Shown here piece by piece: positions 11,584 to 56,659 of a DNA stretch of 56,659 nucleotides (position 1 is its first letter; each line of letters opens with the position of its first letter). The position numbers and the translations under genes were made by a program. The DNA comes from a virus: the IMG/VR virus record IMGVR_UViG_3300027648_000002, positions 1 to 56,659 of that record. One strand, given 5' to 3'. Below the pieces are notes generated by a model that saw nothing but the letters and a program-made list of their open reading frames with translations, did not search any database and was not told the origin of the DNA.

Positions 11584-11877
11584 TCAGCTTCGGTCGGCGA
11601 TCTCCGCTGCGGTCTCGTTCGCCATGTCGTACACCGCCCGCAGGATCGTCAGGTAGGCCGGGTCAGCGCCGACGCTCAGCTCGAGCATCCCGGAGCCCTC
11701 GCACTCGCGGCACTCGCTGGGATGCGACCACCAGCGGCGCCTCGAGCTGCCCACGCCGCGACAGGCCGCGCATGCTTCGGTGAGGACGCCGCCGAACAGA
11801 CGCCGGAAGTCGACCTGGACGCCGAGCAGGGCGCAGTTCGCAGCCAGCCGGACTAGCTGGCTGCCTCGGATTCCCCC
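11584..11877 (-). CDS. -1 frame extension of the tail chaperone (T-like domain), carrying two CxxCxGxG zinc-finger repeats
   Basis: The -1 frame opens just after a TGA at 11890-11892 and stays open to the TGA at 11584-11586. Nearly all third positions are G/C. It encodes ...TEACAACRGVGSSRRRWWSHPSECRECEGSGMLEL.... No canonical start precedes the first motif. Confidence 0.55.
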   Translation of the reverse strand, partial: GGIRGSQLVRLAANCALLGVQVDFRRLFGGVLTEACAACRGVGSSRRRWWSHPSECRECEGSGMLELSVGADPAYLTILRAVYDMANETAAEIADRS

Positions 11878-12410
11878 AACTGCTCCTCGTCAATGTCGCC
11901 GTCGACGATGCCCTGCTTGCCCATCAGCAGCCCGGCGTGGACCACCACCTGCGCCTGCTGGGGGATGATGAGGAACACGGCTTCACGGTTCGTGATCTGC
12001 GCCCCGTCGCCTGGCGTGTGCAGCCCGAGGTATTCCGCGAACGCGACATCGAGCTTGTGCGCCTCCGCGTTGAACTGTGCGGCTTCGGCCGTGGCCTGCT
12101 CGTCGGCATCGGGGCCGACCCGGATCTCGACACGCTCACAGGACGCCAAGAGAGTGTCGGCGGCGTTCAGAAGCTCCTGTGTCGCTTCGGTGTCCTCCTT
12201 GTCTTTGCCGCGCACCCTCGCGTTGCGTGCCGCGATACGCCGCTGCGTCTTGTAGTCGACGAGGTGGTAGATGCCGACGAGCCGCCCGTCATAGCCGGGT
12301 ATCGCGAGCCGCTCGAGACGGTCGCCCTGCTGTTCGGCGCGCTGGCGACGCAACTGCTCCTGCAGCGACTCCGCGGGACGCGGAAGCTCGGTCGTGACGG
12401 GTGCGTTCAT
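11853..12410 (-). CDS. Tail assembly chaperone (G-like, zero-frame product)
   Basis: 185 aa, acidic, between the tube and tape measure genes. A G5 run lies 7 codons before the stop. Confidence 0.65.
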   Translation of the reverse strand: MNAPVTTELPRPAESLQEQLRRQRAEQQGDRLERLAIPGYDGRLVGIYHLVDYKTQRRIAARNARVRGKDKEDTEATQELLNAADTLLASCERVEIRVGPDADEQATAEAAQFNAEAHKLDVAFAEYLGLHTPGDGAQITNREAVFLIIPQQAQVVVHAGLLMGKQGIVDGDIDEEQLGESEAAS

Positions 12411-12424
12411 CCGTTCCTCCTCAG

Positions 12425-12847
12425 CTAGCTGATTGGCCCATTCGGGCTAATTTTCAGTTGCAGTCTGACCTCCTCGGAGGCACCCGATTTGTAGTTCGGG
12501 CGCATGACGCCCGCCGCGACGCCCGTGTATGTGAAGACGTTGCCGGTGGATGCCTGTTCGGGGCCGAGCAGCGTGTAGCTCGCGGTGACGGCTGCCGCGA
12601 TGACCACGGAGCGCTCCATCGCCTTGTATGCCGTGACCATTGCTTCTGACCACAGCCGTTCCACGGTGATCGGCGAGCGCTTGGAGATGCCACCCAGCGC
12701 GATCTGTTCCTGCATAGCGCCGGGGAACACGATCACTTCCTCGGCTGCGATGTCGCCGCCCTCCACCATATCCCACGATTCGGCGTCGAGCGAAAGTCCG
12801 GCGATCGATACGTGGATCGAGACCTGGTCACTTCGGTATATCCGCAT
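12425..12847 (-). CDS. Tail tube protein (contractile tail)
   Basis: 140 aa, immediately downstream of the sheath gene. Confidence 0.7.
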   Translation of the reverse strand: MRIYRSDQVSIHVSIAGLSLDAESWDMVEGGDIAAEEVIVFPGAMQEQIALGGISKRSPITVERLWSEAMVTAYKAMERSVVIAAAVTASYTLLGPEQASTGNVFTYTGVAAGVMRPNYKSGASEEVRLQLKISPNGPIS

Positions 12848-12849
12848 GA

Positions 12850-14328
12850 CTACGCTCCCACAGATTCAGTTATTGGGACGGACACTATGAACTCGCTGAT
12901 CGAGTTGGCGTACGGCGAGATCCGGACTTTGAGTTCCGCGTTGAGTTCGCCCGCCTGCTCAGTGGCCGGCGTGTTGATCGGTTCACCCACATTTGCCACG
13001 CCGGCGGTCGCTGCCGATTCGCCGAAGAGGGCGTTCTCTTTCCAGTGTTCGGCGATGACGCCCTGGAGTTCGCCCTGGAGCTTTGACAGCAGGATGCCGC
13101 GCCCGTCGATCGTCCGCCCGAAATACTTTTCGAGCAGTTCTTCTGACTGTGCGATGAGGTGCATGCGCTCGCGGCTCGCGGACGCCTGCCAGAAGATGCG
13201 GTCTGTGGCATAGGTCAGCGCGGTGACGAACCCGTACAGGCACGGGATGCCTGCGGGTGTCACATACCAGGAGTTGATGCCGGCTTCGGAGAGTTCGGTC
13301 ATCTGCGCGAGCGTGAACGTGTTCGTGAAGCTCTGCACGAAGTTGCTGATGCCGCCTGCGGGCTGCCCGGGTGGTGACCAGCCTGGCCCGATCGGCGCCT
13401 GGTTGTCGTTGCCCGTCGTGGCGACCTGTGCACACAGCGCGGCGATGACGCCAGACCCGGCGATTTTCCTCGTGGTCGAGGGAGTGAGCCCCGGCACTAT
13501 GCATGAGCTGGAGTGAAAGATCATGTACCCGGCGATGCCGGCCGCGTAGGCTTCTTTGGCGGTGATCAACGTCGCCGGGTTCGACGAGTCCGCGAGGTCG
13601 CAGATCGCGAAGCGGTTGTTTTTCGACGCCTGGCAGTGTTCGCCCATCAACACGTGGATGCCTTTTTTGACGGGTTCTTTTTCGGTGGCGGGTATCCACA
13701 CCTGGCCAGGACCGTAGGTCTTGAGGATACGTTCGAGAGCTTCTTTCACTGCGGCTTCCAGGATTTCCGTCGCGGGGTTGACGCCGCCCGTGAGCGCAGC
13801 CGCCGCAACGACTTTCAGAGCTTCGCCTTTGCCCGTCGCGTATTCGCTGCCTTCTTCCACGACGATGTAGGGCGAGTTGATGCCGAGGAATTCCGAGGCT
13901 TTGGTGCCTTTGATCGTTTCGAGGACTTCGCCGGCTTCGTTCTGGATGACGAGTTCGGTGGCGTTCGCTTCGATCTTGAGCTTGTTGCCGAGCGTGCCGC
14001 GGTACTTGGCTTTGACGATCAGCGTTTTCGCCGCGCCAGCAGTGGCGAGTTCTTTGGAGGCTGCGGTCGCCGCAGATTCTTTGCCGATCCGGGTGACGTA
14101 CACCTGCGCGCCGCCGAGCGCGAAGAACGCCTGGATCTCGTCGTACATCACAGCGCTGGTCGCTGTGCGTTCGCCGAACGTGGCGACGTATGCCGAGAGG
14201 CTCTTGATGAGCGTGGTGGTGAACGGGCCGGAGTCGGTCAGGCCGAGCGGGAAGCCCGTGCCGGTGGAGATGGATGTCCCCGCCGATTGAGCGGTCTCCG
14301 TGGCGACCACTTTGATGCCGAAGGGCAT
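12850..14328 (-). CDS. Tail sheath protein
   Basis: 492 aa. Position and sheath-like N-terminus (MPFGIKVV...GFPLGLT...AQVYVTRIG). Confidence 0.85.
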   Translation of the reverse strand: MPFGIKVVATETAQSAGTSISTGTGFPLGLTDSGPFTTTLIKSLSAYVATFGERTATSAVMYDEIQAFFALGGAQVYVTRIGKESAATAASKELATAGAAKTLIVKAKYRGTLGNKLKIEANATELVIQNEAGEVLETIKGTKASEFLGINSPYIVVEEGSEYATGKGEALKVVAAAALTGGVNPATEILEAAVKEALERILKTYGPGQVWIPATEKEPVKKGIHVLMGEHCQASKNNRFAICDLADSSNPATLITAKEAYAAGIAGYMIFHSSSCIVPGLTPSTTRKIAGSGVIAALCAQVATTGNDNQAPIGPGWSPPGQPAGGISNFVQSFTNTFTLAQMTELSEAGINSWYVTPAGIPCLYGFVTALTYATDRIFWQASASRERMHLIAQSEELLEKYFGRTIDGRGILLSKLQGELQGVIAEHWKENALFGESAATAGVANVGEPINTPATEQAGELNAELKVRISPYANSISEFIVSVPITESVGA

Positions 14329-16004: not shown

Positions 16005-17594
16005 CTACTCGCCCGTGCGCTGGGAGGGATTCGAGCAACCGAGCACTTGAGATGGGCCGCTCTTGCCTGAGCGTTGGGATGGCGACGAGAACCCCGGTAG
16101 ACCAGGGCTCGGCTGGAACGCTTTGTTGGCAGTTGCCGACACCGCGCCCGCACCATGGCCTATCGCGGTCGATGTCCTACGAATCGTCGCTATGGTCGCG
16201 AGCGCCATCCCGGCACCCGAGGTACGAACCGCAATGCTGGCCCTCTTGGTGGCGCTGGCGTTGACGACGCCTGCACCATGCACGACGGCGGTGGCTGACG
16301 GCACCATCCGTCCCGACGCGGTCGCAGAGCCCGCTCCGTGGCCGCTCCCGGTGGCTGTAGCTCGACGGCCGGCCGTAGCCTGGCAGAGACCCGCCGTGTG
16401 GCTTTCGGCGACATTCGACGAGCGTTTGCTGCTGCCTACGGTGGACGCGGATCCGGCGCCGCTGGCGTGAGCTTCGTGTGACGCCAACACGGCATTGCCG
16501 GCTGCCGACGCCCCACCCGCCCCGTGAGCCACCACGGATGCTGTAGCGACACGCGACCCCGACGCGGTCGATCTACCGGTGCCGTGGGCAACAGACGAGG
16601 CCGACGCGATCCTTCCAACGGTCGCGGTCGCCTTCCCCGCACCCGACGTGCTGGCGGTGAGCGTGCCGCGCACCCCGTACGCCTGCAGAGGCAGTTCGCC
16701 CCATTCGATGGATTCCCAGGGAACCTTTTCGATCGTGGTGTAGGTCGAAGCGACCGACCGTTCGCTGTTTGTGCCGCCAGTCGTCTTGATCTTCAGGACC
16801 CCTTCACCGGCAGGGACCAGAAACGCGAGCGACTGAAATTTGCCTGCGCCTTCCCCAATCCGCAGTTCGAGACCGGTTACCGTCACCCAGCCGCCGCCCG
16901 AAGGGGTGCCCAGGTATGTCCCTACGCCCAGCAGGGCTCCGTTGCCGTGCGCGAACAGCCCGATCTGCACCTGCGTGGCCGTAGAGCCTGCGGGCCCGAC
17001 GTACAGGCGCATCATCCTTACGATGCCGCCGCCTTTGATCGGCAAGTATTCGCTGCGATAGATCACGCCCGGCAGCGCTTCGTGTTCGTTTTTGTAGGCT
17101 TCAGCTATCCCTGTCGATGGCCCCGCCAGCAACAGCAGCCCGGTCCCTTCGGCAGCGCAGAGTCCTGCGCCGTGAACCTGGGCGCTTGCCTGGACAGCGA
17201 TACGTGAGCTCGTGGCCTGCGCTTGCCCGGCGCCGTGCACAGCCGCGGCGCCAGCAGCAACCCTGGCGCCTTCGATCCGCGCGAGACCGGCACCAGTGAC
17301 TACCGCCGCAGATGAGGCGGTGCGCTTTGTGCTGGCAGTCGCTACGCCGGCGCCGTGAACGACGGCAGCAGTGGTGGCCACGCGCGACCCTTCAGCGCGA
17401 GCGCTCCCTGCGCCGTGGACTTCACCGGCACCCATCGCTACCCGCGAGGCTGTAGCCGCCCCAACGCCCGCACCGCTCACGGCCGCGAGCGCCACGCCCG
17501 GCGTCGCGGAGCTGCGGATAGGCCCGAACTCCCAGCTCCCGCGCTCATAGGCACGAGGGCGACGGCCCATGATCCCGCGCGCTATACGGGCCAT
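16005..17594 (-). CDS. Virion-module protein with about 15 tandem 20-aa HGAG repeats flanking a globular core
   Basis: Units such as VHGAGSARAEGSRVATTAAV and VHGAGVATASTKRTASSAAV recur N- and C-terminal to a roughly 170-aa beta-rich core. Good GC3. Confidence 0.7.
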   Translation of the reverse strand: MARIARGIMGRRPRAYERGSWEFGPIRSSATPGVALAAVSGAGVGAATASRVAMGAGEVHGAGSARAEGSRVATTAAVVHGAGVATASTKRTASSAAVVTGAGLARIEGARVAAGAAAVHGAGQAQATSSRIAVQASAQVHGAGLCAAEGTGLLLLAGPSTGIAEAYKNEHEALPGVIYRSEYLPIKGGGIVRMMRLYVGPAGSTATQVQIGLFAHGNGALLGVGTYLGTPSGGGWVTVTGLELRIGEGAGKFQSLAFLVPAGEGVLKIKTTGGTNSERSVASTYTTIEKVPWESIEWGELPLQAYGVRGTLTASTSGAGKATATVGRIASASSVAHGTGRSTASGSRVATASVVAHGAGGASAAGNAVLASHEAHASGAGSASTVGSSKRSSNVAESHTAGLCQATAGRRATATGSGHGAGSATASGRMVPSATAVVHGAGVVNASATKRASIAVRTSGAGMALATIATIRRTSTAIGHGAGAVSATANKAFQPSPGLPGFSSPSQRSGKSGPSQVLGCSNPSQRTGE

Positions 17595-20214: not shown

Positions 20215-20571
20215 CTAGATGTAGACGATGGTGAGCGGCGATGAGACCGCCGCGCTTGCGTGGATGATCAGCGACGTGGGGATCGCCGCTGGCAGCGAGT
20301 AGACCGTCGGGTTGGCCGGGCTGATGAGCAGACCCGTGTCTGCTTCGTTGGCGCTCGTGCGTAGCTTGAGTTCGGCTGTGCTCGCCGTGGGTGGGATGAT
20401 CAGGGCCGCCACCGTCCCTGCGGGCACGGTGAAGCGGTTGTCGCCGATGGTGAGCGGGGTGGCGAGCGTCTCGCCGATCACGACCGTGCCCTGGATGGTT
20501 ATCGGTCCGATCTGCCGGGAGCCGGCGGGCTCGGTCGCCGAGAGGCCCGTGATGTTCAGCGTGCCCGCCAT
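20215..20571 (-). CDS. Hypothetical small beta-rich protein
   Basis: 118 aa. ATGA-type junction with the upstream gene. Confidence 0.55.
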   Translation of the reverse strand: MAGTLNITGLSATEPAGSRQIGPITIQGTVVIGETLATPLTIGDNRFTVPAGTVAALIIPPTASTAELKLRTSANEADTGLLISPANPTVYSLPAAIPTSLIIHASAAVSSPLTIVYI

Positions 20572-21368
20572 TAGGCGAGCATGACCAGCGGCGCGATCGT
20601 CTTGCTCGTGACGGTCGTTTCCAGTTTGGCCTGTGCTTTTTCGCCGCCTTCGGATGCGGGCGCGGTCGTGAACGACAGGCCGATCGGGCCTTCACGGGTG
20701 CCCTGGGTGCCTTTCTGCTGAAAGCCCGCTTTGTAGTTCGTCTTGGCTTCTGGGGCCGTGACGGTCCAGCACGTCGGCGCGCCCGAGGTCACGATCGCGA
20801 ACATGACATAGATGAAGCCGTTGGGGCAGTTCGCTTCGGTCGCTTCGACGGTCCCTTTCAGCTTGAACCACGTCATCGTGTGCGCAACCCATGCCGTGCT
20901 GCCGCGGTTCGGTGATTCCTGGATCAGGACAGGCGCGGCGCTCTTGCCTTCATAGAGCGCGGCGACACCCCCCGTGGTGGTCCCGGCGGTTTCCCCGGTG
21001 AACACTCCGACTTCGGAGAAGATGTCGCCGAGTCGCACTGGCACCGCGACGACGTTCTGGACGGTCGTGGCACCGGGCGGCGCTTCGTCTTTCAAGCTCC
21101 CAAGCCCCATGTAGTCGCCGTTGGAGCGGCCCAGCCGGGACGGGAGCGCGACCTGTCTGACGTTGCCGTACAGGACCGCTGTCTCGCCCAGCGCCGAGCT
21201 TTCAGCGCCAGCGGCCGCCGAGACCTCTGAGGACGGCCCGAGGCTCAGGTTCGCGAGCGTGGCTATGACCGTGCTCACGGGGATCGCGAGCACGTTGGCG
21301 ACTTCGGCGACGCCCATCCTGGCGCCATAGGCCAGGTCGAAGATGCGTTCGTTCTGCGTGATAGCCAT
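20571..21368 (-). CDS. Hypothetical virion protein, paralog of 21976..22599
   Basis: Shares VAVPV..GD, (A)PNG(F/Y), PTC..VT and a C-terminal ...PL..L. pattern with the 207-aa protein. Confidence 0.6.
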   Translation of the reverse strand: MAITQNERIFDLAYGARMGVAEVANVLAIPVSTVIATLANLSLGPSSEVSAAAGAESSALGETAVLYGNVRQVALPSRLGRSNGDYMGLGSLKDEAPPGATTVQNVVAVPVRLGDIFSEVGVFTGETAGTTTGGVAALYEGKSAAPVLIQESPNRGSTAWVAHTMTWFKLKGTVEATEANCPNGFIYVMFAIVTSGAPTCWTVTAPEAKTNYKAGFQQKGTQGTREGPIGLSFTTAPASEGGEKAQAKLETTVTSKTIAPLVMLA

Positions 21369-21379
21369 GCTCGCTCCCT

Positions 21380-21676
21380 TCAGATGATCTTTGCGAGGAT
21401 CTCCGAGGACTTGAGGACCACGAGGTCTTCGCCGTTGAACCGGATCTCTGTGCCGCCGTACTTGCTGTAGAGGACTTCGTGCCCGGCGGCGATCTCCGGC
21501 TCGATACGGACGCCTCGGTCTGTGAGGGCGCCGGGGCCTGTCGCGATCACGGTCCCGATCTGTGGCTTCTCGGCCGCGACAGCGGGAAGGATGAGGCCGC
21601 TCGCGCGCTCGAGGTCCTCCGGGGTGGGCCTGATGACTACCCGGTCAGCGAGCGGGCGGAGTTCCTGCTGGTGCAT
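21380..21676 (-). CDS. groES: GroES / Cpn10 co-chaperonin homologue
   Basis: 98 aa with an AGGAGG RBS. LRPLADRVVIRP, ASGLILP, AEKPQIGTVIATGPG and VLYSKYGGTEIRFNGEDLVVLKSSEILAKI are near-canonical actinobacterial GroES motifs. Confidence 0.9.
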   Translation of the reverse strand: MHQQELRPLADRVVIRPTPEDLERASGLILPAVAAEKPQIGTVIATGPGALTDRGVRIEPEIAAGHEVLYSKYGGTEIRFNGEDLVVLKSSEILAKII

Positions 21677-21975: not shown

Positions 21976-22599
21976 CTACGTGAGGAAGATGAGCGGCACT
22001 TTTTCGAGGCCGACCTGGGCTTTGATCGTCAGGGCGGCTGCGGCGAGCGTCGCGCTTTTCTGTGCGGTGGTCACAGCGAAGCACGTCGGCGTGGTGGCGA
22101 ACCAGTTGTACTGCACTTTCGGTTTCATTTCGAAGCCGACCTGCGTGCCGGGTGTGGCCGCTTCGAGGTTCACGCCGGCGAACAGGTAGCCGTTTGGTGC
22201 GTTCGCGTTGTTGACGTACAGCGGGCTTTCCAGGGTGTAGGCGATGGCGGCGTATTCCGTCAGTTCGGTCGTGCCGCCCGCTTTGCTCTGCCCCAGCAGT
22301 TTCGGTTCGTTGGTGCCCGTGAGGCCCGAGTAGACCGCCGCGAACTGGTTCGTGATGGAGCTGCCGACAGCGGCCTGCAACATCGTGACCTTCGTGATGA
22401 CGTCGCCTTCCTGGACGGGGACCGCGACGAACGTGCCTTCTTTCGTCGTGATCATCGCCGCTGCGAGCAGCGAGTTGAGCCCCACGCCATACAGGTTGGA
22501 GCGTGCGGCGTTCTGCGAGTTGGTGACGTTGCTGGGGCGCCCCAGCAGCTTCCAGATCGGGTCTTCCTGGTGGTAGTGCCCGCCTGCGAGATCGGTCAT
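21976..22599 (-). CDS. Hypothetical virion protein, paralog of 20571..21368
   Basis: 207 aa, the first gene after the capsid-gene terminator. See the paralogy motifs listed for 20571..21368. Confidence 0.6.
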   Translation of the reverse strand: MTDLAGGHYHQEDPIWKLLGRPSNVTNSQNAARSNLYGVGLNSLLAAAMITTKEGTFVAVPVQEGDVITKVTMLQAAVGSSITNQFAAVYSGLTGTNEPKLLGQSKAGGTTELTEYAAIAYTLESPLYVNNANAPNGYLFAGVNLEAATPGTQVGFEMKPKVQYNWFATTPTCFAVTTAQKSATLAAAALTIKAQVGLEKVPLIFLT

Positions 22600-22674: not shown

Positions 22675-24387
22675 TTAGACCGCCGGCGGGTACGCCGTGG
22701 AGGTGTATTTGATCGAGCCGCCGCCGAGCGCCCCAAGGGGAGGTTCGAAGCCCGTCCCGGACGCGATGGCCAACGACTGGCCGTAGCGCATCAGGAACGC
22801 GTAATACTCGAACACCTGGAAGCGGATCTCCAGGGTGCCCGAGAGCACCTCGGAAAGCGCGCGGGTGCGGAGCAGCCCCTCGAACAGCCACGCGTCGTCG
22901 AACTTCGCGGCGAGCGCGATGTCCGCCGTGCCAGCACCGGGGGTGCCGCTGGTGTCCTTGGTCGGGATGTTCGCGTCGATGTAGACGTTGTGCGGCCCGA
23001 ACGGCAACGACCCGACCAGACCCTCTGCGGGCTCTTCGCCGGCGCCGTACAGGGCGCTGACGTTGTATGGCCCGAAGTCCGAACGGTTGGCCACCAGACG
23101 CCCAGACTTGCCTTCGGCACCGTCGAGGCCTGTCCCGAACCAGTACCAGCGGCGCGGGTGCATGACGAGATGAACGTTCTGCACAGCGAAACGCGACGCG
23201 GCGATCTGGGAGATCATCGCGCCCATCACCATGTTGAACGCGGTCACCAGCGGCGCCGCTTCGGTCCAGGTGACGGTGTTCGCCGACCAGTTCGTAGACG
23301 GGTACATGCCCTTGATCAGCCCGGCGTTCAGCGCGGTGGTGTTCGTGCCCGGCGCGGAGATCACCTGCCGGTCGAGGAACCTGTTGAGGTCCGCGATGAG
23401 GTCTTCCATGATCACCTCGTCGAGGTGATACGGGGACTGCTCGAGCAGTTGGATCGCGATGTCGGACTGGCCGGCTGCGGTCTTGACGTTCGCCGTCACC
23501 GCTTCGTCCGTCCAGTCTTTGTCAGCGACCGGGGCTGAGTCCTGGGTCTGGGCCGCGACTTCTGTGGGTTCTTTGATCTTCGGCAGGTTGATGCTGTCGG
23601 TGCCCTCGGGGAGCGGCATGCGACGGCACAGATCGGCCGTGGTGCGGCCCGCACGCAGGTAGGGGATGAACTCCGGCAGCCACAGCGGGGGGACGAAGAA
23701 CCCCCCCTGGCCGTCCAACCTGTTTGGGTTGACTCGCTTCTCTTCCAGCCGGGTGATGCCGAGCTGGCTGCGGACGAATGGGTCGTCGATCAGCCCTCGG
23801 GCACGGATGTTCAGCGGCCCGTGCAGTTCCCGGGTGATCTGGTGCTCGGCCGCGTCCGCCTCAGCACGGGCGCGCCGCTCGGATTCAGCGGCGATCTTCG
23901 GGAACTCGACGCGCATCTCTTTGATGTGGCTTTCGATGCGTTCGTCACCGGAGTTCCCGAGCTGCGCCCGTGCCCCTGGGAGGTCTTTCGCTGCGAGGTC
24001 ACGGAAGAACGAGAAGCCGTTCCCTCGTTCGTAGGTCAGCGGGTTGCTGATGACTTCCAGGCTTGCGGTGCCGCGTGAGGCCTCCTGCGCGTCCTGCGCA
24101 CGGCGTGCCAGCAGCTCCTCCTCGTCGATGCGGCGATCCAGTGCGTGGATCGCCGCGGTGCGCTGGTCGTGTGCGGCACCGAAGGCGCCCTCGTCCAGGT
24201 CGAACTGCGTGCGCTCCTCGTCGGTCACCTCTTTGGTGTCGCGTGCCTCAAACGCCGTGCGCTGCTCGCGGCGCTGAGTGATCGCGACAGCGGCCGCGTC
24301 GATCAGCTCCTTGCGCTGGTCCTGGAGCTGCTCGAGGATCGAACGCTCGTCGGTCGGCGCCTCTTTCTCTTTGGTTTCAGGGGGCAT
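22675..24387 (-). CDS. Major capsid protein, HK97 fold, with a long N-terminal coiled-coil (delta/scaffold-like) region
   Basis: Start at MPPETKEKE with an AGGAGG RBS. RVNPNRLDGQGGFFVPPLW and SDIAIQLLEQSP...ADLNRFLDRQV are Phage_capsid-type motifs. Confidence 0.9.
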   Translation of the reverse strand: MPPETKEKEAPTDERSILEQLQDQRKELIDAAAVAITQRREQRTAFEARDTKEVTDEERTQFDLDEGAFGAAHDQRTAAIHALDRRIDEEELLARRAQDAQEASRGTASLEVISNPLTYERGNGFSFFRDLAAKDLPGARAQLGNSGDERIESHIKEMRVEFPKIAAESERRARAEADAAEHQITRELHGPLNIRARGLIDDPFVRSQLGITRLEEKRVNPNRLDGQGGFFVPPLWLPEFIPYLRAGRTTADLCRRMPLPEGTDSINLPKIKEPTEVAAQTQDSAPVADKDWTDEAVTANVKTAAGQSDIAIQLLEQSPYHLDEVIMEDLIADLNRFLDRQVISAPGTNTTALNAGLIKGMYPSTNWSANTVTWTEAAPLVTAFNMVMGAMISQIAASRFAVQNVHLVMHPRRWYWFGTGLDGAEGKSGRLVANRSDFGPYNVSALYGAGEEPAEGLVGSLPFGPHNVYIDANIPTKDTSGTPGAGTADIALAAKFDDAWLFEGLLRTRALSEVLSGTLEIRFQVFEYYAFLMRYGQSLAIASGTGFEPPLGALGGGSIKYTSTAYPPAV

Positions 24388-24534
24388 TGGCCCCTCCTTT
24401 CGGGAGAACACCCTCGCGGGTGCTGGTGTGGTCTCTCCCGGGCGATACTCGACCTGCTCGGCCGGCACACGCGCGATTGCAAGGGGCGCGTGAAGGCGGC
24501 GAGGGCGGAGCCCAACGCGGGGTCACTGCAAGAT

Positions 24535-25815
24535 TTAGTAGCCCGACTGAACTTCCAGCGCTTTTCCGGTCAAATACGCCAGTCCCGTCGGGTAGCGGAA
24601 CAGCGCGGCGGCGTAACCGTGGAGCATGAAGCGCGCCTGCAGGGTGCCCGACAGGGTCTCCTTGTCCACCATCGTGCTCTTCGCTGTCTCGAACAGCATC
24701 GAGTCGGTGGGGCGGGCGCAGACGATGACGTCCTGGTTGCCGTTGATATTCACCGGGATCGCATCCGACAGGTAGGTCGGCCAGCCCAGGATCGGCGGTG
24801 CCACGGCAGGGCGCGTGTCGTCGAACGTGTACGGGACGGGCGGCAGCGCCTGGTGGCCCGGCACCGCGAGAGGAAGTTTCTCTTCGTCCTCTTCCGAGCC
24901 AATGTACGCCCAGCGGGCCGTCCGCATCAGCCAGACCTCGGGCGACACTTTGCGGGCGTCGCCGAGCTGTCCTGCGACCTTCCCGAGTTCCTTGAAGATT
25001 TCATAGCCTTTGGTGCCGGTCGCGGTTACTACCGACACGCCGCCGGCGCCTGTCGTGAGGTTCAAGATGCCTGCGATCTGCTGGTGGGATTTGCCGGTGC
25101 CGTTGAACAGCGCCGCCTCTAGAGCTTCGTCGTAGTCCTCCAGCAGGTCCTTGAGGATCGAGTGGTCCAGGTGCGCTCCGGCCGGGGACTGTTCGAGTAG
25201 TTGCATCGAACAGCCGGAGTTGCCGCTGAACGTCTCCACCCACGATTCGGCTGCGGCGTCGGTGAAGTCCTGGTCGGGGACCGGCGAGACATCCTGCGTC
25301 GCTTCAGCAGCGGTGCCGGGCGCCAGGATGCGCGGCAGCTTGATTTCCGAGACTTTGGCTGTCAGCGGGAAGGTGGGGATCAGGCTCGCGAGGACACGCT
25401 TGGCGCGCGGCGCCGTGGCGAAGGCCTCGTTGGCCCACAGCGGCGGCGAGAAGTAGCCGCCTTGGCCATCGATGCGGCTCGGGTTCACGCGCGTCTCAAG
25501 GCCCTCGGGGGCGCTGCGGTACACACGCTCCAGAAACCGCGGCATCTCGATGTCCATCTCGGCTGCGTGGCGTTGCAGGCGCCCGCTGGCCTCCTGGTCG
25601 CCGTTGATCTCGGCGAGCGCTCGGTCACGGAAGTAGCTGGTCGGGGTGTGCCGTTCGTAGGTCAGGGGTTCGCGGGTGGTGCGCACCTCGGGCCGGCGCA
25701 CGCGCTCTTCGGCGAGCACAACGTCGCGCAGCTCCGGCGGGATCGCCTCCCATGTCGCGCGGACCTCGTCGATCGCCGCGCGTGCCTGCTCCGCCGTGCG
25801 GGTCTCGTCAGTCAT
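24535..25815 (-). CDS. Second HK97-fold capsid protein, paralog of 22675..24387
   Basis: PLTYERHTPTSYFRD, RVNPSRIDGQGGYFSPPLW and CSMQLLEQSP...LEDYDEALEAALF align with capsid gene 1. Confidence 0.85.
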   Translation of the reverse strand: MTDETRTAEQARAAIDEVRATWEAIPPELRDVVLAEERVRRPEVRTTREPLTYERHTPTSYFRDRALAEINGDQEASGRLQRHAAEMDIEMPRFLERVYRSAPEGLETRVNPSRIDGQGGYFSPPLWANEAFATAPRAKRVLASLIPTFPLTAKVSEIKLPRILAPGTAAEATQDVSPVPDQDFTDAAAESWVETFSGNSGCSMQLLEQSPAGAHLDHSILKDLLEDYDEALEAALFNGTGKSHQQIAGILNLTTGAGGVSVVTATGTKGYEIFKELGKVAGQLGDARKVSPEVWLMRTARWAYIGSEEDEEKLPLAVPGHQALPPVPYTFDDTRPAVAPPILGWPTYLSDAIPVNINGNQDVIVCARPTDSMLFETAKSTMVDKETLSGTLQARFMLHGYAAALFRYPTGLAYLTGKALEVQSGY

Positions 25816-27314
25816 CGTGCGCCCCTCAACGCGAGCAGCTCAAGCTCCTGCTCAGCGCGCGTGGTGAGATCCGGCACACGTGCCCGCGCTGGCTCAGGCT
25901 CAGGCTCGGGCTTGTCGGGGTTCTCGACGCCGAGCACCTTCGCGAGTTCGGGGAGTGCCTGGTCGAGCTGGTCGTCGGCTTTGGCGATCCGGTCCAGCAC
26001 GGCGGTCAACAGCGTTTCGCGGGCGGTGGAGATCGGTTTGCCGACGCGCAGCTCGACTTCGCCATCGGCGGAGCGGATGCTTGTCGTCTTGCCTGTGGAG
26101 GGGCTTGCACCGAACGTGACGGCGCTGACGTCCCCGCCGTGCAAGGTGACGCTGCGGACTTTGCGGTCGGTCCAGTCCTCGTTCCACGCGTCGTCGGTGC
26201 AGCGGAACGCGAAGCTCATTTCGTCGACCAGGCCGCGTTCCATCTTCAGCTTCAACCGTTGTGCGTCGGGGTCCTCTGTGTCGAACTTGGCGTCGACCTT
26301 CAGGCCGCGCTCGGTCTCCTCGAGCATGAGGGTGCCGGGGATCTGCGAGTCCGGGCGCTCGGTGCGCGCGAGCGGCAGGCCTTCGTGTTCGACGCGGAAC
26401 ACCACGTCGGGGTTCTCCTTCAGAGTGCGCCTGAAGGCCCCGCGTTCGATCGTCTCTGTGAACCCGCCGACGCTGTAGGGCACGTTCGTCAGCGACGCGT
26501 AGCCCTCGAAGTGCATCATGCCGTCCTCGTCTACGCCACGGAACTCGCACTCGCGGACCGAGAACTGACGGTGCTCCAGGCTCTTGCCGTTACGCAGGCT
26601 TTCCGCACGTTGGCGGCGGCGCTCCAGCGCCCGCTGGCCGCTGCGGGAGTCCTTCGCGATTTCGCCGCTGCCGTCACAGTCAGGGCATTCCGTTGAGCCG
26701 CCCTTGACTTTGCCGGAGCCTTCGCAGGTCGGGCATTCTTCCATGTCCTCGGTGCTGTTTTCGACGGCGCGCTGGTTCGCCTCATACGTCGTGACGCGGC
26801 GCACCTTCTCGGGGTCGCCGAGGGTCACGCCGTCATCGTCGGCGATCGTGTACGTCACCTGCCACAGGTCGCCTTCGTATTCGTAGACGGCCCACTGTTC
26901 GGTCATGTCCGTGACGTAGGGGCCGTAGATCGCTTCGCCCTTCTTCTTTTTCGGCAGCGAGTCTGAGATGGCCGATTCGACGAGCTGGCGGCGGTCGTTG
27001 AAGGTTTCGCGTTCCTCAAGCGTTGACCAGACGCCCTTGGTTTCTTTCAGAGACCCGTCCGAGTTCCAGTTGTCGGGGATCAGGCTGGACAGTTTCAGCG
27101 CCTTGGCGCGCTTGATGACGTGAGCACGGATTGAGTCGTGGTCGGCGTTGCCGCGCCCGACGGCTTTGATCGCTTTCTTGAGGTCGTCTTCGTCGGCGAT
27201 CGGGTATGACCCGTCGGCCATCGCTTCGCCGTTCTTGGCCATTTCATCGCGGTCGGCCTGTTTGTACTTCGCGCGCCACTCGCGCGTCAGCGAGCGCTCA
27301 ATCGTCAAGGACAT
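25812..27314 (-). CDS. Prohead maturation protease (HK97 / S78 family) with a long N-terminal extension carrying a DnaJ-type zinc finger
   Basis: C-half: FEGYASLTNVPYS...GAFRRTL...VVFRVEHEG...DEMSFAF. N-half: YPIADEDDLKKAIKAVGRG and CPTCEGSGKVKGGSTECPDCDGSG. Confidence 0.9.
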   Translation of the reverse strand: MSLTIERSLTREWRAKYKQADRDEMAKNGEAMADGSYPIADEDDLKKAIKAVGRGNADHDSIRAHVIKRAKALKLSSLIPDNWNSDGSLKETKGVWSTLEERETFNDRRQLVESAISDSLPKKKKGEAIYGPYVTDMTEQWAVYEYEGDLWQVTYTIADDDGVTLGDPEKVRRVTTYEANQRAVENSTEDMEECPTCEGSGKVKGGSTECPDCDGSGEIAKDSRSGQRALERRRQRAESLRNGKSLEHRQFSVRECEFRGVDEDGMMHFEGYASLTNVPYSVGGFTETIERGAFRRTLKENPDVVFRVEHEGLPLARTERPDSQIPGTLMLEETERGLKVDAKFDTEDPDAQRLKLKMERGLVDEMSFAFRCTDDAWNEDWTDRKVRSVTLHGGDVSAVTFGASPSTGKTTSIRSADGEVELRVGKPISTARETLLTAVLDRIAKADDQLDQALPELAKVLGVENPDKPEPEPEPARARVPDLTTRAEQELELLALRGAR

Positions 27315-27323
27315 GCTGTCTCC

Positions 27324-28643
27324 TTACTTGCCGATCATCGCCGGGTCGCCCTTGCCGTTCGGCGGGACGGGTTCCTCCGTCGGCTCTGGTGCGTACTTCG
27401 CTTCGATGGCCTCTTCCGCTTCGGCCATGACTTTTTCGAGCAGCGTCGTGTTGATCGGCGAATTCAGTTTGTCGCCGTCCTGCTCGGGCGGCAGGTCGAA
27501 CAGGGCGCGTGCATCGTTCGGTGTGAAGAACCCGCCCAGGGTGCCCAGCGAGCCGGCCTGCGCGCGCTCTAGCGTGTCGCCTCGCAGCCGGTGGCTCATG
27601 TCGATCGAGACGTACTCGCCGGGCGGGTGGACGGCGGTCATCGCGGCTTCGTAGCGGCCCGTGTAGTCCTGCAACGTGTTTTTCGTGAAGCCCAGCTCCA
27701 TCTGCTCGATGCCGCGTCCCCAGGCCGTCGTCTTTTCGGTCATGCCGAGCATGTGCGGCGGGCAGCGGAAGATCGTCCCGGCGATTTCTTCGCCGGAGAA
27801 CCGCATCGATTCGAGGAACTGCGAGTCCTGCGGGGTGATCGAGATCGGCTTGACTTCGGTGTCGCCTGTCACGATCGCCGGGAGGTGCGCCTGGCCGAGG
27901 CCCTGGTGGGCGGCCATGAACGACCGGACCATTTTCTTCGTCTGGTCGGGGCTCAGGTCGCCCTTGACCTGGATCACCAGCGACGGGTTAGCGCTGTTGG
28001 AGAAGTAGCGGGCGCCGTAGGTGCTCTGCGCGAGCGACTTGCTCAGCGACAAGCGCAATGACTGGATCGGGTTGACGCCCTGAAGCATCCCCGGCATCGT
28101 CAACAGCCGCACGTGAAAGACGTCTTTGAGCGGGACTTTCTTGTTGAAGAACTGGTATTCCAGTTCGCCGTTCTGTAGCCGTCGGACGGTTGCGTTGTCG
28201 GCGGGGATCGGCTTGATCTGCGTCGGGTACAGCGTCGCTTTGTCGCGGCTGATGACCTGCCCGAAGAACTCGCCGCGCAACGCCAGCGACGCGACGAACT
28301 GCACCATCCAGTCGAACAGGCTTATCTCGCAGTACGGTTCCGTCAACAGCGGCCCGGGCTTGAGTTCTTTGGCCTTGCGCAGCACCTTGCTGTTCAGCAG
28401 CAGCAGCGGCGAGTTCGCGATCGACGAGGACAGCAGGTTCGAGCAGCCATACACCGCCGCGATCTGCAACGCGGACTCCTGGCTGACGGCGATCCCGGCA
28501 GCCGACCCGTAGCCGCCGGCTTCTGCGTTGGTTGGCGGTGTGGAGTTGCCCCATTCAGATCCAGGCTGTGCCGCTCGGGCGTCCTGTGCGCCGTCGCTGC
28601 GGAGGTCAAGCGCGTTCGCGACCGCTTTCGTGAGCAGCGACAT
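27324..28643 (-). CDS. Portal protein (HK97-type Phage_portal)
   Basis: Start at MSLLTKAV. Family-typical region ...GVNPIQSLRLSLSKSLAQSTYGARYFSNSANPS...AHLPAIVTGD...QFLESMRFSGEEIA. Confidence 0.9.
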   Translation of the reverse strand: MSLLTKAVANALDLRSDGAQDARAAQPGSEWGNSTPPTNAEAGGYGSAAGIAVSQESALQIAAVYGCSNLLSSSIANSPLLLLNSKVLRKAKELKPGPLLTEPYCEISLFDWMVQFVASLALRGEFFGQVISRDKATLYPTQIKPIPADNATVRRLQNGELEYQFFNKKVPLKDVFHVRLLTMPGMLQGVNPIQSLRLSLSKSLAQSTYGARYFSNSANPSLVIQVKGDLSPDQTKKMVRSFMAAHQGLGQAHLPAIVTGDTEVKPISITPQDSQFLESMRFSGEEIAGTIFRCPPHMLGMTEKTTAWGRGIEQMELGFTKNTLQDYTGRYEAAMTAVHPPGEYVSIDMSHRLRGDTLERAQAGSLGTLGGFFTPNDARALFDLPPEQDGDKLNSPINTTLLEKVMAEAEEAIEAKYAPEPTEEPVPPNGKGDPAMIGK

Positions 28644-28656
28644 GCGGCAGCCCCTC

Positions 28657-28905
28657 TCAGACGGTCTTGGCGGCCCGGCGCGTCCTACGTTCCGCCTTTC
28701 GCTCCGCGCGCCACAGCGTGAGCTTGACGCGCACATCGTGCACGGCGGCGAGCGTCAGCTTGATCGGGTTCAGCCCCTCGACCGCGAGCGCGAGCAGCCC
28801 GAGCACAACGCTCGCGCCGATCAGCGCCCAGCCGCGCCCCGCCAGTTCGTAGACGCCGGCGACGAACACGCTGCCGGACAGCCCGTAGAGCGCGTTGGCG
28901 AACAT
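28657..28905 (-). CDS. Small membrane protein (2 predicted TM segments)
   Basis: Hydrophobic stretches LYGLSGSVFVAGVY and GWALIGASVVLGLLALAV, with a basic tail. Confidence 0.5.
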   Translation of the reverse strand: MFANALYGLSGSVFVAGVYELAGRGWALIGASVVLGLLALAVEGLNPIKLTLAAVHDVRVKLTLWRAERKAERRTRRAAKTV

Positions 28906-32094: not shown

Positions 32095-32391
32095 TCACCA
32101 CTCCCTTGATTTACGCGCCCGCAGCCGCCGGCGTCCCCGTCCTCGGTTCGCCGCCGCCACGTTGCACGGCTCATGCTCGGGTCCATGCGTGACGGATCGA
32201 TCGAGATCGTCATGGCCGAGATGCCACGGTTCGCCGGGCACGATCGGATGCCCGCAACGCCAGCAGCACACTTCGCCGCGCGCGACGGCCGGCGCCCACT
32301 TGGCGCGCAGACGCCGATGTTCCTTGCCATATCCCCGAGCGGCCGTCGGGGCTCTACGCCGGCCAGCTTCACGAGCCCGATTGCGCGGCAT
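32095..32391 (-). CDS. HNH endonuclease (terminase-associated type)
   Basis: GYGKEHRRLRAKW...CCWRCGHPI...WHLGHDD...HEPCN is a canonical HNH core. Start moved to MPRNRAREAG. Confidence 0.8.
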   Translation of the reverse strand: MPRNRAREAGRRRAPTAARGYGKEHRRLRAKWAPAVARGEVCCWRCGHPIVPGEPWHLGHDDLDRSVTHGPEHEPCNVAAANRGRGRRRLRARKSREW

Positions 32392-32557
32392 TCGACTTCG
32401 GGCCGAGCCAGTCGGCTTCGCGGAAGTTGATCTCTCCTGGCAGTGGGGGGACCGGCTCGTCGCGTACGAGTAGCCCGATGAAGGTCTCGCGAACATAGCC
32501 CGGCAATTGGCGTGCCTCGGCGATGGCGATGGCCCGCTCACGATCCACGTTCGACAC
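32369..32557 (-). CDS. Hypothetical protein
   Basis: 62 aa with realistic composition. First gene after the AT-richer gap at 32558-32661. Confidence 0.5.
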   Translation of the reverse strand: MSNVDRERAIAIAEARQLPGYVRETFIGLLVRDEPVPPLPGEINFREADWLGPKSNAAQSGS

Positions 32558-37267: not shown

Positions 37268-37798
37268 TCATGGCCGTGGTGTGACCGAGGATCTGCTGGG
37301 TCGGCGAGGGCGCCGATTTTGGGCCTGTTCCTTCGGCGTCGCCCACCGACAGTTGCCAGGTTCGTAGTTGCCGTCGTTGTCGATGCGCTCGATGCTGTGT
37401 CCATCCGGCCGCTCGCCCATGTCGGCGAGGAAGTTCTCGAAGACCTGCCAGCGCTCGCAGACGGTGATGCCGCGGCCGCCGTAATGCTCGTAGTCCGGTG
37501 CCCTTGGGTTCGTCGTGCAGCGTTCTCGCATCGCCTGCCACGATTTGTAGGTAGGCGATCTGCTGGCTTTGCGTGAGTGACCGTGTCGGGTGTTTCGATC
37601 CCGCATCCGCTCAGCGGGGATACAGCCGCAGCTTCGTGTATGGCCGCAGCGCAGGTTGCTGACGCTCACGATGGTCTTGTTGCCGCAGTCGCAGAGGCAG
37701 AGCCAGTGAGCGCCCTTAGCTGTGCTCGCCGCAGGCGTCAGCACCTTCAAGCGCTCGAACTGCTGGCCCGTCAAGTCGAGCCGGTTGTGGCCGCCCAT
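37268..37798 (-). CDS. Phage DNA-binding or homing-endonuclease-associated protein (zinc ribbon plus a GRGI...NCRWAT..EQ..N module)
   Basis: WLCLCDCGN...CGHTRSCGC, YKSWQAMRERC, YGGRGITVCERW, DGNYEPGNCRWATPKEQAQN. Confidence 0.55.
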   Translation of the reverse strand: MGGHNRLDLTGQQFERLKVLTPAASTAKGAHWLCLCDCGNKTIVSVSNLRCGHTRSCGCIPAERMRDRNTRHGHSRKASRSPTYKSWQAMRERCTTNPRAPDYEHYGGRGITVCERWQVFENFLADMGERPDGHSIERIDNDGNYEPGNCRWATPKEQAQNRRPRRPSRSSVTPRP

Positions 37799-37989: not shown

Positions 37990-38670
37990 ATGGCCCTCCA
38001 GTTGATCGGCTACGCCCGCGTCTCCACCGATGAGCAGGCGCTCTACGGTTACGGCCTGGACGCCCAGGAGTCAAAGTGCCGCGAGCACGCCCGGCGCGTC
38101 GGCGCGGAGATGGTGGTGATCCGCGATGAGGGAATCAGCGGCAAGGCACTCGACCGCCCAGGGCTGATGCGTGCACTCACGCGGATCGCCGCTGGAGAGG
38201 CCGACGGCCTGGTGGTCGCGAAGCTGGACCGGCTCACGCGCTCAGTGATCGACTTCGCGATGCTCTTGGAGTGGTTCACGGTCGCGGACGCGCTGCTCGT
38301 CGCGCTCGACTTCGACTTGGACACCTCGACCCCGTCCGGCCGGCTCGTCGCGACGATCATGTCAGCGGTCGCGGAGTGGGAGCGTGGCGTCATCGCCCAG
38401 CGCACGCGCGAGGGCCTGGCCGCAGCCCGCGCGCAAGGGCGCCCGGTCGGCCGCCCAGCAGTCCCCGATGAGCTGGCACACCGCATCCGCAAGCAGCGCG
38501 AGGACGGCGCGACGCTGCAGCAGATTTGCGACTCGCTGAACGCCGACAGGGTGCCGACCGCGCGCGGTGCGATTGCTTGGCGGCCATCCGCGATTCAGCG
38601 CGCACTCGGCTACGAGCGTCAGCCTCGACGCCGCAAGATCGCCACGCTCCCCGAGATCCGCCGACGCTAG
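37990..38670 (+). CDS. Small serine recombinase (resolvase/invertase family)
   Basis: LIGYARVSTDEQ (catalytic Ser), GLVVAKLDRLTRS, and a C-terminal HTH (ATLQQICDSLNADRVPTARG). 226 aa. Confidence 0.9.
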   Translation: MALQLIGYARVSTDEQALYGYGLDAQESKCREHARRVGAEMVVIRDEGISGKALDRPGLMRALTRIAAGEADGLVVAKLDRLTRSVIDFAMLLEWFTVADALLVALDFDLDTSTPSGRLVATIMSAVAEWERGVIAQRTREGLAAARAQGRPVGRPAVPDELAHRIRKQREDGATLQQICDSLNADRVPTARGAIAWRPSAIQRALGYERQPRRRKIATLPEIRRR

Positions 38671-56448: not shown

Positions 56449-56659
56449 CGGTCCAAGACTCAGCCGTCCTCGACGCTGTTGAGGCCGCCGCACGCGAGCC
56501 CGGCGGGGACTGGCCGACCGCGCGACAGATCTGCCGGCAGATGCCAGGCGTGAGCCCCAACATCGTCCACCGCAAGCTCGCCGAGTTGGTCGCAGGAGGA
56601 CAGCTCACTCGAGCTATGCGCGAACGCACGCCTCGCTACCGCGTCGCTCAATCGACGCA
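56445..56659 (+). CDS. 5-prime part of a junction-spanning gene for a hypothetical, possibly winged-helix DNA-binding protein; it continues at base 100
   Basis: ATG at 56445 overlaps the stop of the preceding ORF (ATGA). The frame stays open to the contig end and matches ORF-track 26..325. The joined product is 146 aa. Confidence 0.6.
   Translation, partial: MTVQDSAVLDAVEAAAREPGGDWPTARQICRQMPGVSPNIVHRKLAELVAGGQLTRAMRERTPRYRVAQST
56561..56659. repeat. Terminal overlap copy 2
   Basis: Identical to bases 1-99. Confidence 0.95.

Follow-up and report, generated by a model that had tools for sequence, protein, structure and literature searches.

A DnaJ/anti-TRAP-class zinc-finger unit predicted as an optional cassette in the prohead protease of an uncultured soil phage

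Prohead proteases are usually seen as a catalytic domain combined with a capsid-targeting tail. Analysis of the IMG/VR virus record IMGVR_UViG_3300027648_000002, which derives from an uncultured soil phage and is referred to over its whole length of 56,659 nt as the window, revealed a complete gene for a 500-aa prohead (capsid maturation) protease that carries a short cysteine-rich finger ahead of its catalytic domain. The gene starts with ATG and lies on the minus strand at 25812..27314 (open reading frame [ORF] list, public gene calls and S78 profiles). The phage enzyme has the catalytic domain, its His and Ser residues, the fold and a gene position between portal and capsid genes in common with HK97 gp4 and T4 gp21, whereas the described proteases of this type lack its N-terminal extension, which is composed of two unnamed modules, here called N1 and mid, followed by the finger.

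The finger itself recalls two kinds of zinc-binding protein. DnaJ contains four CxxCxGxG repeats, which form two zinc centers, from repeats 1 and 4 and from repeats 2 and 3. The cysteine-rich (CR) domain of DnaJ (PF00684, 1exk) has the repeat motif in common with the phage finger, but in DnaJ it interrupts the C-terminal domain for substrate binding and acts together with a J domain, while the phage protease has neither four repeats nor a J domain. Anti-TRAP (RtpA) of Bacillus (2bx9/3lcz, PF15777) is like the finger in having two CxxCxGxG repeats, a short spacer and one Cys4 site; it is, however, a free 53-residue protein that has an oligomerization helix and binds TRAP, whereas the phage finger is embedded in a 500-aa protease with no TRAP system. 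DnaJ-type fingers without a J domain are reported to help in the assembly of large complexes, as for plant BSD2 (Rubisco) and PSA2/ZnJ2 (PMC5818400, PMC7662858), and Bacillus phage Riggi is on record as encoding a small protein in which the CXXCXGXG motif occurs twice (PMC3853051). All of these are separate proteins, in contrast to the finger described here, which is fused into a protease and, as a second copy, into a predicted frameshift product.

An original prediction from the DNA had placed two consecutive CxxCxGxG repeats in the 500-aa ORF at 26664-26735, and these coordinates proved exact: CPTCEGSGKVKGGSTECPDCDGSG constitutes residues 194-217 of the protease, with the core CPTCEGSG-x8-CPDCDGSG encoded on the minus strand upstream of the S78 domain. 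The repeats begin at residues 194 and 210 and account for four of the six cysteines of the protein. The further claim that about 250 extra residues precede a normal protease half agrees with the Pfam Peptidase_S78 match, which begins at residue 257, and the fusion of a zinc-type module to the maturation protease is real, within one ORF. A six-frame scan of the window detected only four CxxCxGxG motifs, which form two pairs on the minus strand (26664-26735 and 11689-11772), and the only two Cys4 (CxxC...CxxC) sites among ORFs with coding-like GC content at third codon positions (GC3) were the same two pairs. A single motif is expected about once per shuffled window; a pair, observed twice, occurred in none of 300 mononucleotide shuffles and none of 300 triplet-block shuffles. 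Chance occurrence of the motif pair was ruled out on this basis (0/600).

Searches with the single sequence and with a family profile agreed on the class of the finger. The best match of the single sequence in Pfam was Anti-TRAP (E=9e-6, 26 vs 32 bits), and DnaJ_CXXCXGXG (PF00684) was matched over profile positions 1-36 of 65 (E=8.7e-5, 23.2 bits vs a gathering cut-off of 32.7); these scores fall below the gathering cut-offs because only half of each model was matched. Anti-TRAP 2bx9, in an alignment that spans both repeats, and DnaJ 1exk were also the best matches among PDB sequences. A profile built from 38 homologous fingers matched each half of the E. coli DnaJ CR domain 1exk (E=5.5e-12), as well as human DNAJA3 2ctt (6e-9) and anti-TRAP 2bx9 (E=3.8e-6). 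Individually, 37 of the 38 fingers matched PF00684 (E<0.01), 34 matched Anti-TRAP and 2 matched BSD2_CRD. The two Cys-x-x-Cys-x-Gly-x-Gly units provide the sole invariant columns of the profile (8 Cys/Gly), and the consensus extends beyond the ligands to CPTC.G[ST]GK[IV]..G...CPDC.G[ST]GE[IV]. A generic zinc ribbon was ruled out, since ribbon families matched only 1-2 of the 38 members and the DnaJ CR and anti-TRAP models dominated; the motif is DnaJ-CR-like, as had been claimed.

The description of the finger as a DnaJ cysteine-rich module was borne out for the class of the repeat unit and went too far in its extent, in that the finger amounts to half a CR domain, has two repeats and scores under the Pfam and NCBIfam cut-offs. 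Because there are only two repeats, one zinc center would be possible, as in anti-TRAP. The profile comparisons show the finger to be, at the level of sequence, a Cys4 unit of the DnaJ-CR/anti-TRAP class with two repeats and one predicted center and not a full DnaJ domain, and zinc would be held by the four cysteines. No J domain, DnaJ_C or other part of DnaJ was detected in the protease in Pfam and NCBIfam scans; TIGR02349 (DnaJ) matches residues 187-228 only (22.6 vs 377 bits), and NF058604 (anti-TRAP) scores 24.6 vs 65 bits. PF27659 was tried as a name for the N-terminal domain and found to be wrong, as it corresponds to CHP02642/TIGR02642 and aligns to finger residues 189-224, the only residues matched by TIGR02642 (22.7 vs 101.4 bits). 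Where public tables tag these proteases with PF27659 (CHP02642) or Anti-TRAP, the 30-residue finger is in every case the source of the label.

Weak matches to PHROG families of anti-termination protein Q-like proteins and to TIGR02642/PF27659, together with the Arg-rich helix at residues 223-242 that follows the finger, suggest an alternative in which the finger and this basic helix bind DNA or RNA in the prohead, or regulate expression like the fingers of Q-type antiterminators. This reading is highly improbable: the Q-like and TIGR02642 scores are far under cut-off (22.7 vs 101 bits for the latter) and reflect the motif only, the basic helix is conserved regardless of the finger, and the best profile matches of the finger are protein-binding modules.

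The modules of the protease follow one another in the order N1, mid, zinc finger, helix, S78 protease and C-terminal helices. The AlphaFold2 model of the protein (predicted local distance difference test score [pLDDT] 84, predicted template modeling score [pTM] 0.46) contains confident modules separated by linkers with pLDDT <50 at residues 94-102, 177-187 and 405-426, and shows the protease, as modeled, to consist of independent modules on flexible linkers. The finger forms a mini-domain at residues ~190-222 (26649..26747, minus strand; delimited by motif, profiles and pLDDT), predicted with confidence as a hairpin (pLDDT ~91) and adjoining the low-confidence linker 177-187. It is followed by the basic helix and a linker, residues 223-256 (26547..26648, minus strand; AlphaFold2 helix 223-242 and alignment consensus), in which the pattern ExR..A..L.G..E.R.F is kept with or without the finger.

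The S78/HK97-family prohead serine protease domain occupies residues 257-412 (26079..26546, minus strand; PF04586, with an AlphaFold2 span of 247-400). It matches Peptidase_S78 (PF04586) with E=1.5e-20 and 74.4 bits (cut-off 21) and TIGR01543 of NCBIfam with 75.9 bits (cut-off 59), none of the 87 colinear homologs aligned departs from His310 and Ser367, and Foldseek relates the C-terminal half of the AlphaFold model to the T4 gp21 protease 5jbl (E=3e-4, probability 1.00). The gene is flanked upstream by the portal gene (27324-28736) and downstream by a Phage_capsid gene (24535-25815). On account of the S78 scores, the invariant His and Ser, the match to the T4 gp21 fold and the position between portal and capsid genes, the protein is a genuine, and probably active, prohead protease. 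Its C-terminal region, residues 413-500 (25812..26078, minus strand), is modeled as a disordered stretch followed by helices at 430-461 and 483-499, and contains a conserved E.RAGK.LS motif in which R423, G425 and S429 are near-invariant; by analogy with HK97 gp4, this region probably directs the protease to the capsid or has a scaffold-like function.

The two modules at the N-terminus have no fold assignment: the N-terminal half of the protease gave no significant PDB fold match, and its matches in BFVD were exclusively uncharacterized phage proteins. N1 is a small helical domain at residues ~1-95 (AlphaFold2 core ~20-90; 27030..27314, minus strand; pLDDT ~96) with the motif DGSYPI...AV/IGRG...IPDNWxxDGS, and it has no match and no name in Pfam or PHROG. 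A profile of N1 nevertheless retrieved 6547 cluster representatives at E<=1e-3 among 1.84 billion. The domain forms separate genes of ~90 aa within head modules, is joined to one end or the other of proteases, and is part of portal-type fusions and of scaffold-like proteins. It is found at the C-terminus of the protease of Gordonia phage ChisanaKitsune and, as a separate gene, between MuF-like and scaffold genes in Streptomyces phage KimJongPhill; in Microbacterium phage Cece it is part of the giant protease. In every case checked, its context was that of head proteins. The mid module, one helix and a five-stranded sheet at residues ~96-185 (AlphaFold2 ~103-176; 26760..27029, minus strand; pLDDT 92-96), gave weak PHROG matches to head maturation proteases and is present in only a subset of homologs.

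The distribution of the finger was followed in the 120 best protease homologs and counted over 119, using parsimony on a neighbor-joining tree of the S78 domains. The finger is present in 51 of the 119 (~43%), N-terminal of S78 in 42 and C-terminal in 9, and is missing from 68; at least 24 gains or losses were counted on the tree. Conservation of the cysteines in homologous proteases, a point on which the original prediction depended, was found wherever the finger occurs, all 8 Cys/Gly positions being invariant. Relative to the closest relative, which is 75% identical, the finger codons show 13 synonymous and 6 non-synonymous differences, and the finger is under purifying selection where it is present. 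The arrangement N1-mid-finger-S78 is seen in this phage and its closest relatives, and N1-finger-S78 and finger-S78 also occur, as does N1-mid-S78 with no finger (e.g., P0010-P0013, 45-48% identical to the query). A permuted order, S78-N1-finger, is found in P0016, P0021, P0036, P0049 and P0108 and suggests repeated recombination within linkers. The finger usually lies no more than ~20 residues after N1 or mid and is flanked by acidic or polar low-complexity linkers. The comparison shows the finger to be an optional cassette that is frequently gained and lost.

Expanded arrays were also observed. The protease P0037 has six CxxC units, and a 700-aa IMG/VR protein (L034:9746-11845) combines two pairs, i.e., four repeats, with N1 in the absence of S78 and reaches the PF00684 gathering cut-off (34.7 bits). 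Such S78-less proteins of ~700 aa with finger and N1 look scaffold-like, because their C-termini match the tail of a head-maturation-protease PHROG. A short motif, (Q)QNSA, ENAA or SENNAA, recurs after the finger in diverse homologs and could be a site of self-cleavage by the protease.

The gene order portal, protease, major capsid protein 1 (MCP1), MCP2 is common to relatives with and without the finger. In the window, two adjacent major-capsid paralogs of the HK97 fold are encoded at 24535-25815 (minus strand, 426 aa) and 22675-24468 (minus strand, 597 aa); both match Phage_capsid and have the motif RVNP.R.DGQGG.F.PPLW in common, and the pair is kept whether or not the finger is present. The two paralogs may be separate hexamer and pentamer proteins. 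Among GTDB genomes, the whole protease matched nothing, and an alignment of the N-terminal part matched 19 loci, all but one in Actinomycetota; the best genome match was a prophage protease of the form N1-finger-S78 in a Solirubrobacteraceae metagenome-assembled genome.

These arrangements bear on whether the finger serves as a redox or thiol switch, in which the four cysteines would time protease activation as a zinc-releasing sensor or as a thiol-disulfide catalyst. Thiol-disulfide activity has been reported for DnaJ-type fingers elsewhere, and the finger of this phage lies just upstream of the protease domain. A built-in switch fits poorly, however, with a finger that may precede or follow the protease, lies at differing distances from it, and also occurs in proteins with no protease at all, and this reading is extremely unlikely.

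The same data are relevant to a further alternative, in which the finger is an inert knuckle that stiffens a long linker or shields it, for example from self-cleavage that comes too early, and that spreads as a harmless self-folding unit with no client. This reading is favored by the constant placement of the finger in low-complexity linkers of low pLDDT, by the 24 or more gain/loss events, by the absence of the finger from close relatives with the same head genes, and by the fact that its conserved residues are those required for the fold. On the other hand, non-ligand positions are also under purifying selection, placement just after N1 or mid has recurred, and a finger arose independently in a second transient assembly factor of this phage, as described below. 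The spacer reading is therefore regarded as rather unlikely, although it is not a negligible one.

The combination of such a finger with a prohead protease was said in the original prediction to be unfamiliar from described phages, and none was found in searches of INPHARED, which have limited sensitivity for a module of 30 residues. A 41-aa finger query gave only weak matches, and in the 60 records listed no match coincided with a protease gene. A query comprising finger and S78 matched 872 records, and among the matches listed none covers the finger, while a query comprising N1 and finger gave 19 N1 matches, of which the sole alignment at the finger position (MT835500) lacks the CxxC pair. 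Four N1-bearing phage loci scanned directly contained no in-frame motif, and in tblastn searches of deposited phages only the S78 part of the protease was matched. The literature yielded nothing on prohead proteases or tail assembly chaperones that contain a zinc finger. From these negative results in INPHARED and in the literature, the fusion is undescribed in the searchable literature, yet it is common in metagenomic data; the finger-protease arrangement is common in metagenomic actinobacterial phages and has been unrecognized, not rare.

A second finger in the same genome was confirmed at 11689-11772, where the same motif pair had been predicted in a tail-chaperone extension; it follows the chaperone ORF and is encoded in the -1 frame. 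The tail genes run in the order sheath (12850-14328; phrog_23), a tube-sized ORF (12425-12847), a 185-aa ORF, a 168-aa ORF and tape measure (9330-11069; phrog_3981). The 185-aa ORF (11853..12410, minus strand) has no Pfam, PHROG or NCBIfam match and is assigned as a G-like tail assembly chaperone from its position between tube and tape-measure genes; its relatives are 72% identical. Near its end lies a candidate -1 slippery site, G GGG GAA (GGGGGAA; 11871..11877, minus strand), which is conserved in relatives, and from this site a T-like extension of ~96 codons stays open in the -1 frame to a stop at 11584 (11584..11874, minus strand). The GC3 of the extension is 0.88, compared with 0.84 for real genes. 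Because the first CxxC is preceded by no start codon in the -1 frame, this frame would be reachable only by frameshifting.

Two IMG/VR loci, L085 and L086, with sheaths 82-83% identical and chaperones 72% identical to those of the window, keep the extension in the -1 frame. One of two variants, TTGGGGGAA or GTGGGGGAA, is kept by the window and by both relatives, with the form [T/G]TGGGGGAA at the junction. Retention of both extension and junction sequence in these relatives supports a programmed -1 frameshift of the G/GT type as the likely route to the product. The lambda G/GT chaperone has the position between tube and tape measure, the overlapping -1 extension and a conserved slip sequence in common with this locus; the differences are that the candidate GGGGGAA here departs from the textbook slip sequence XXXYYYZ and that the T-domain has a lineage-specific 38-aa finger insertion. 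The chaperone ORF and a 3-sequence alignment of it matched nothing in metagenome contigs and, in IMG/VR, only the same two loci, and no called proteins were matched by a 96-aa extension query.

The second finger, CAACRGVG-x12-CRECEGSG, has its core at 11689-11772 (minus strand) and is carried by an insertion of ~42 residues (net +38 aa; 11665..11793, minus strand) in the T-like extension relative to L085 and L086. The window reads ...DFRRLF-[GGVLTEACAACRGVG...CRECEGSGMLELSVGA]-DPAYLTILRA... where the relatives read ...DYRRLF-VDGE-PAYLTILRA..., so that both close relatives are without the chaperone finger. This finger matches DnaJ_CXXCXGXG with E=5.8e-4, and the GC3 of the insertion is 0.90. 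The two fingers of the genome agree only in motif residues and differ in spacing (8 vs 12), and they are therefore separate acquisitions.

Considered together, these features make it most likely that the finger serves transient assembly factors as an accessory, zinc-stabilized module for docking or holdase action, a reading to which, on sequence grounds, we give an even chance. The two CxxCxGxG turns, eight residues apart, would jointly hold one Zn2+, giving a self-contained bead on flexible linkers between the N1/mid modules and S78. The protease and its C-terminal helices might carry the whole chain into the procapsid, as the biology of HK97 and T4 would imply, and the N-terminal beads, including the finger, would be passengers during assembly that are lost when the protease digests itself. 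Phages of this group would graft or lose the finger beside N1 or mid, in proteases and in scaffold-like proteins, and the tail assembly chaperone of this phage would have received a second copy in its tape-measure-binding half. At each of these places, the finger may offer a small protein-contact or holdase surface by which the assembly factor grips a client with no need of DnaK, much as in stand-alone DnaJ-type fingers like plant BSD2, the candidate clients being the capsid protein or portal for the protease and the tape measure for the chaperone. A contact or holdase role is favored over a spacer because of the conservation of non-ligand positions, the placement beside N1 or mid, and the presence of fingers on two transient carriers.

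Several points weigh against the docking or holdase role. Zinc binding is predicted from sequence and an AlphaFold2 model, and the likeness to DnaJ and anti-TRAP derives largely from a short motif for which all single-sequence scores are under curated cut-offs. Loss of the finger even between close relatives with the same capsid genes shows it to be dispensable, which suits a neutral spacer as well as a helper. Packaging of the protease and its self-digestion are extrapolated from other phages, and the client of the finger is putative. A bolder form of the idea, that actinobacterial phages graft a mobile, Hsp70-independent "clip-on holdase" onto factors that serve only in assembly, namely the protease or scaffold in the head and the frameshifted chaperone in the tail, is distinctly unlikely. 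If it were true, the module would provide a zinc-dependent grip on unfolded or intermediate capsid and tape-measure proteins and would form a new class among virus-encoded chaperones of assembly, one that is self-contained.

The GroES gene that the original prediction had noted nearby is real. It encodes a 98-aa GroES/Cpn10 co-chaperonin within the head-gene block (21380..21676, minus strand), is preceded by an AGGAGG ribosome-binding site, and scores above cut-off (PF00166, E=1.1e-25, 89.9 vs 21.1 bits; NCBIfam GroES models up to 1.4e-31, including NF001531 with 96.1 bits vs a cut-off of 96). No GroES was found by tblastn in ~100 related loci, and a 61-kb relative covered from protease to tail genes has no Cpn10 match on record. 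Because it is absent from the related loci examined, this phage seems to have gained the gene recently. The ORFs that flank it, 21976-22599 (minus strand, 207 aa) and 20571-21368 (minus strand, 265 aa), have matches at overlapping positions of related genomes, which suggests that they are paralogs of what is a single gene there and that a duplication brackets the GroES insertion.

These observations also address the proposal that the two fingers are true DnaJ-like chaperone modules, which might hand clients to host DnaK and form a co-adapted toolkit with the phage GroES. In its favor are the DnaJ-type sequence class, the occurrence of two fingers and GroES within one 56-kb genome, and the location of both fingers on proteins that act only in assembly. 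Nevertheless, each finger has two repeats only, the other parts of DnaJ (J domain, G/F region and C-terminal domains) are lacking, and GroES is absent from each related locus, including the 61-kb genome whose sheath is 83% identical; that genome has a finger in its protease (P0078) and none in its tail chaperone. The protease finger, chaperone finger and GroES were not found together beyond this genome. Given the lack of GroES in ~100 loci and of a chaperone finger in the P0078 genome, the three elements coincide here and do not make up a conserved set; the dedicated assembly-chaperone toolkit that had been proposed did not hold up, and we judge the underlying reading very unlikely.

The finding has consequences for how prohead proteases are viewed and annotated. 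In soil actinobacterial phages, these enzymes are also carriers of shuffled accessory modules, namely the unnamed N1 (~6,500 clusters), a second unnamed domain (mid) and a DnaJ-type finger. The kinds of element combined here, an S78 protease and a DnaJ-type finger, are known; of note are the double graft and the way in which the modules have been shuffled. Close relatives, however, can dispense with the finger, and nothing so far indicates a new mechanism. Should it be a true zinc-dependent assembly helper, it would represent a new kind of built-in chaperone in phage morphogenesis and would explain the same cassette on two unrelated transient assembly factors. Should it be only a stable spacer, the finding would still aid annotation, in that the PF27659, Anti-TRAP and DnaJ labels on phage proteases mark a 30-residue finger and not a chaperone or antiterminator, and PF27659 and Anti-TRAP labels taken at face value could mislead automatic annotation.

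The genome has a GC content of ~65%, and nearly all of its genes are on the minus strand. Positions 1-99 of the window are identical to 56561-56659 (99 bases), which looks like the overlap of a circular assembly, and the window is on this account probably a complete phage genome of ~56.56 kb. The same 500-aa protease gene has been called in ENA, Logan and JGI contigs and is found on public contigs of 56,701 and 56,590 bp. A megablast search with 5 kb detected no near-identical or related DNA among deposited phages, and a 403-aa mid-genome protein had no match in IMG/VR. Inspection by eye revealed a small serine-recombinase-like ORF (MALQLIGYARVSTDEQ...) at 37990-38670 (plus strand) and HNH-like Cys/His motifs in the ORFs 32095-32541 and 37268-37798 (both minus strand), which may point to a temperate lifestyle and to homing-type nucleases. 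Also recognized by eye was a 529-aa Ala/Gly/Ser-rich protein with many copies of a V.HGAG.A.A-like motif, the gene for which (16005-17594, minus strand) is placed between the head-completion genes and the tail genes.

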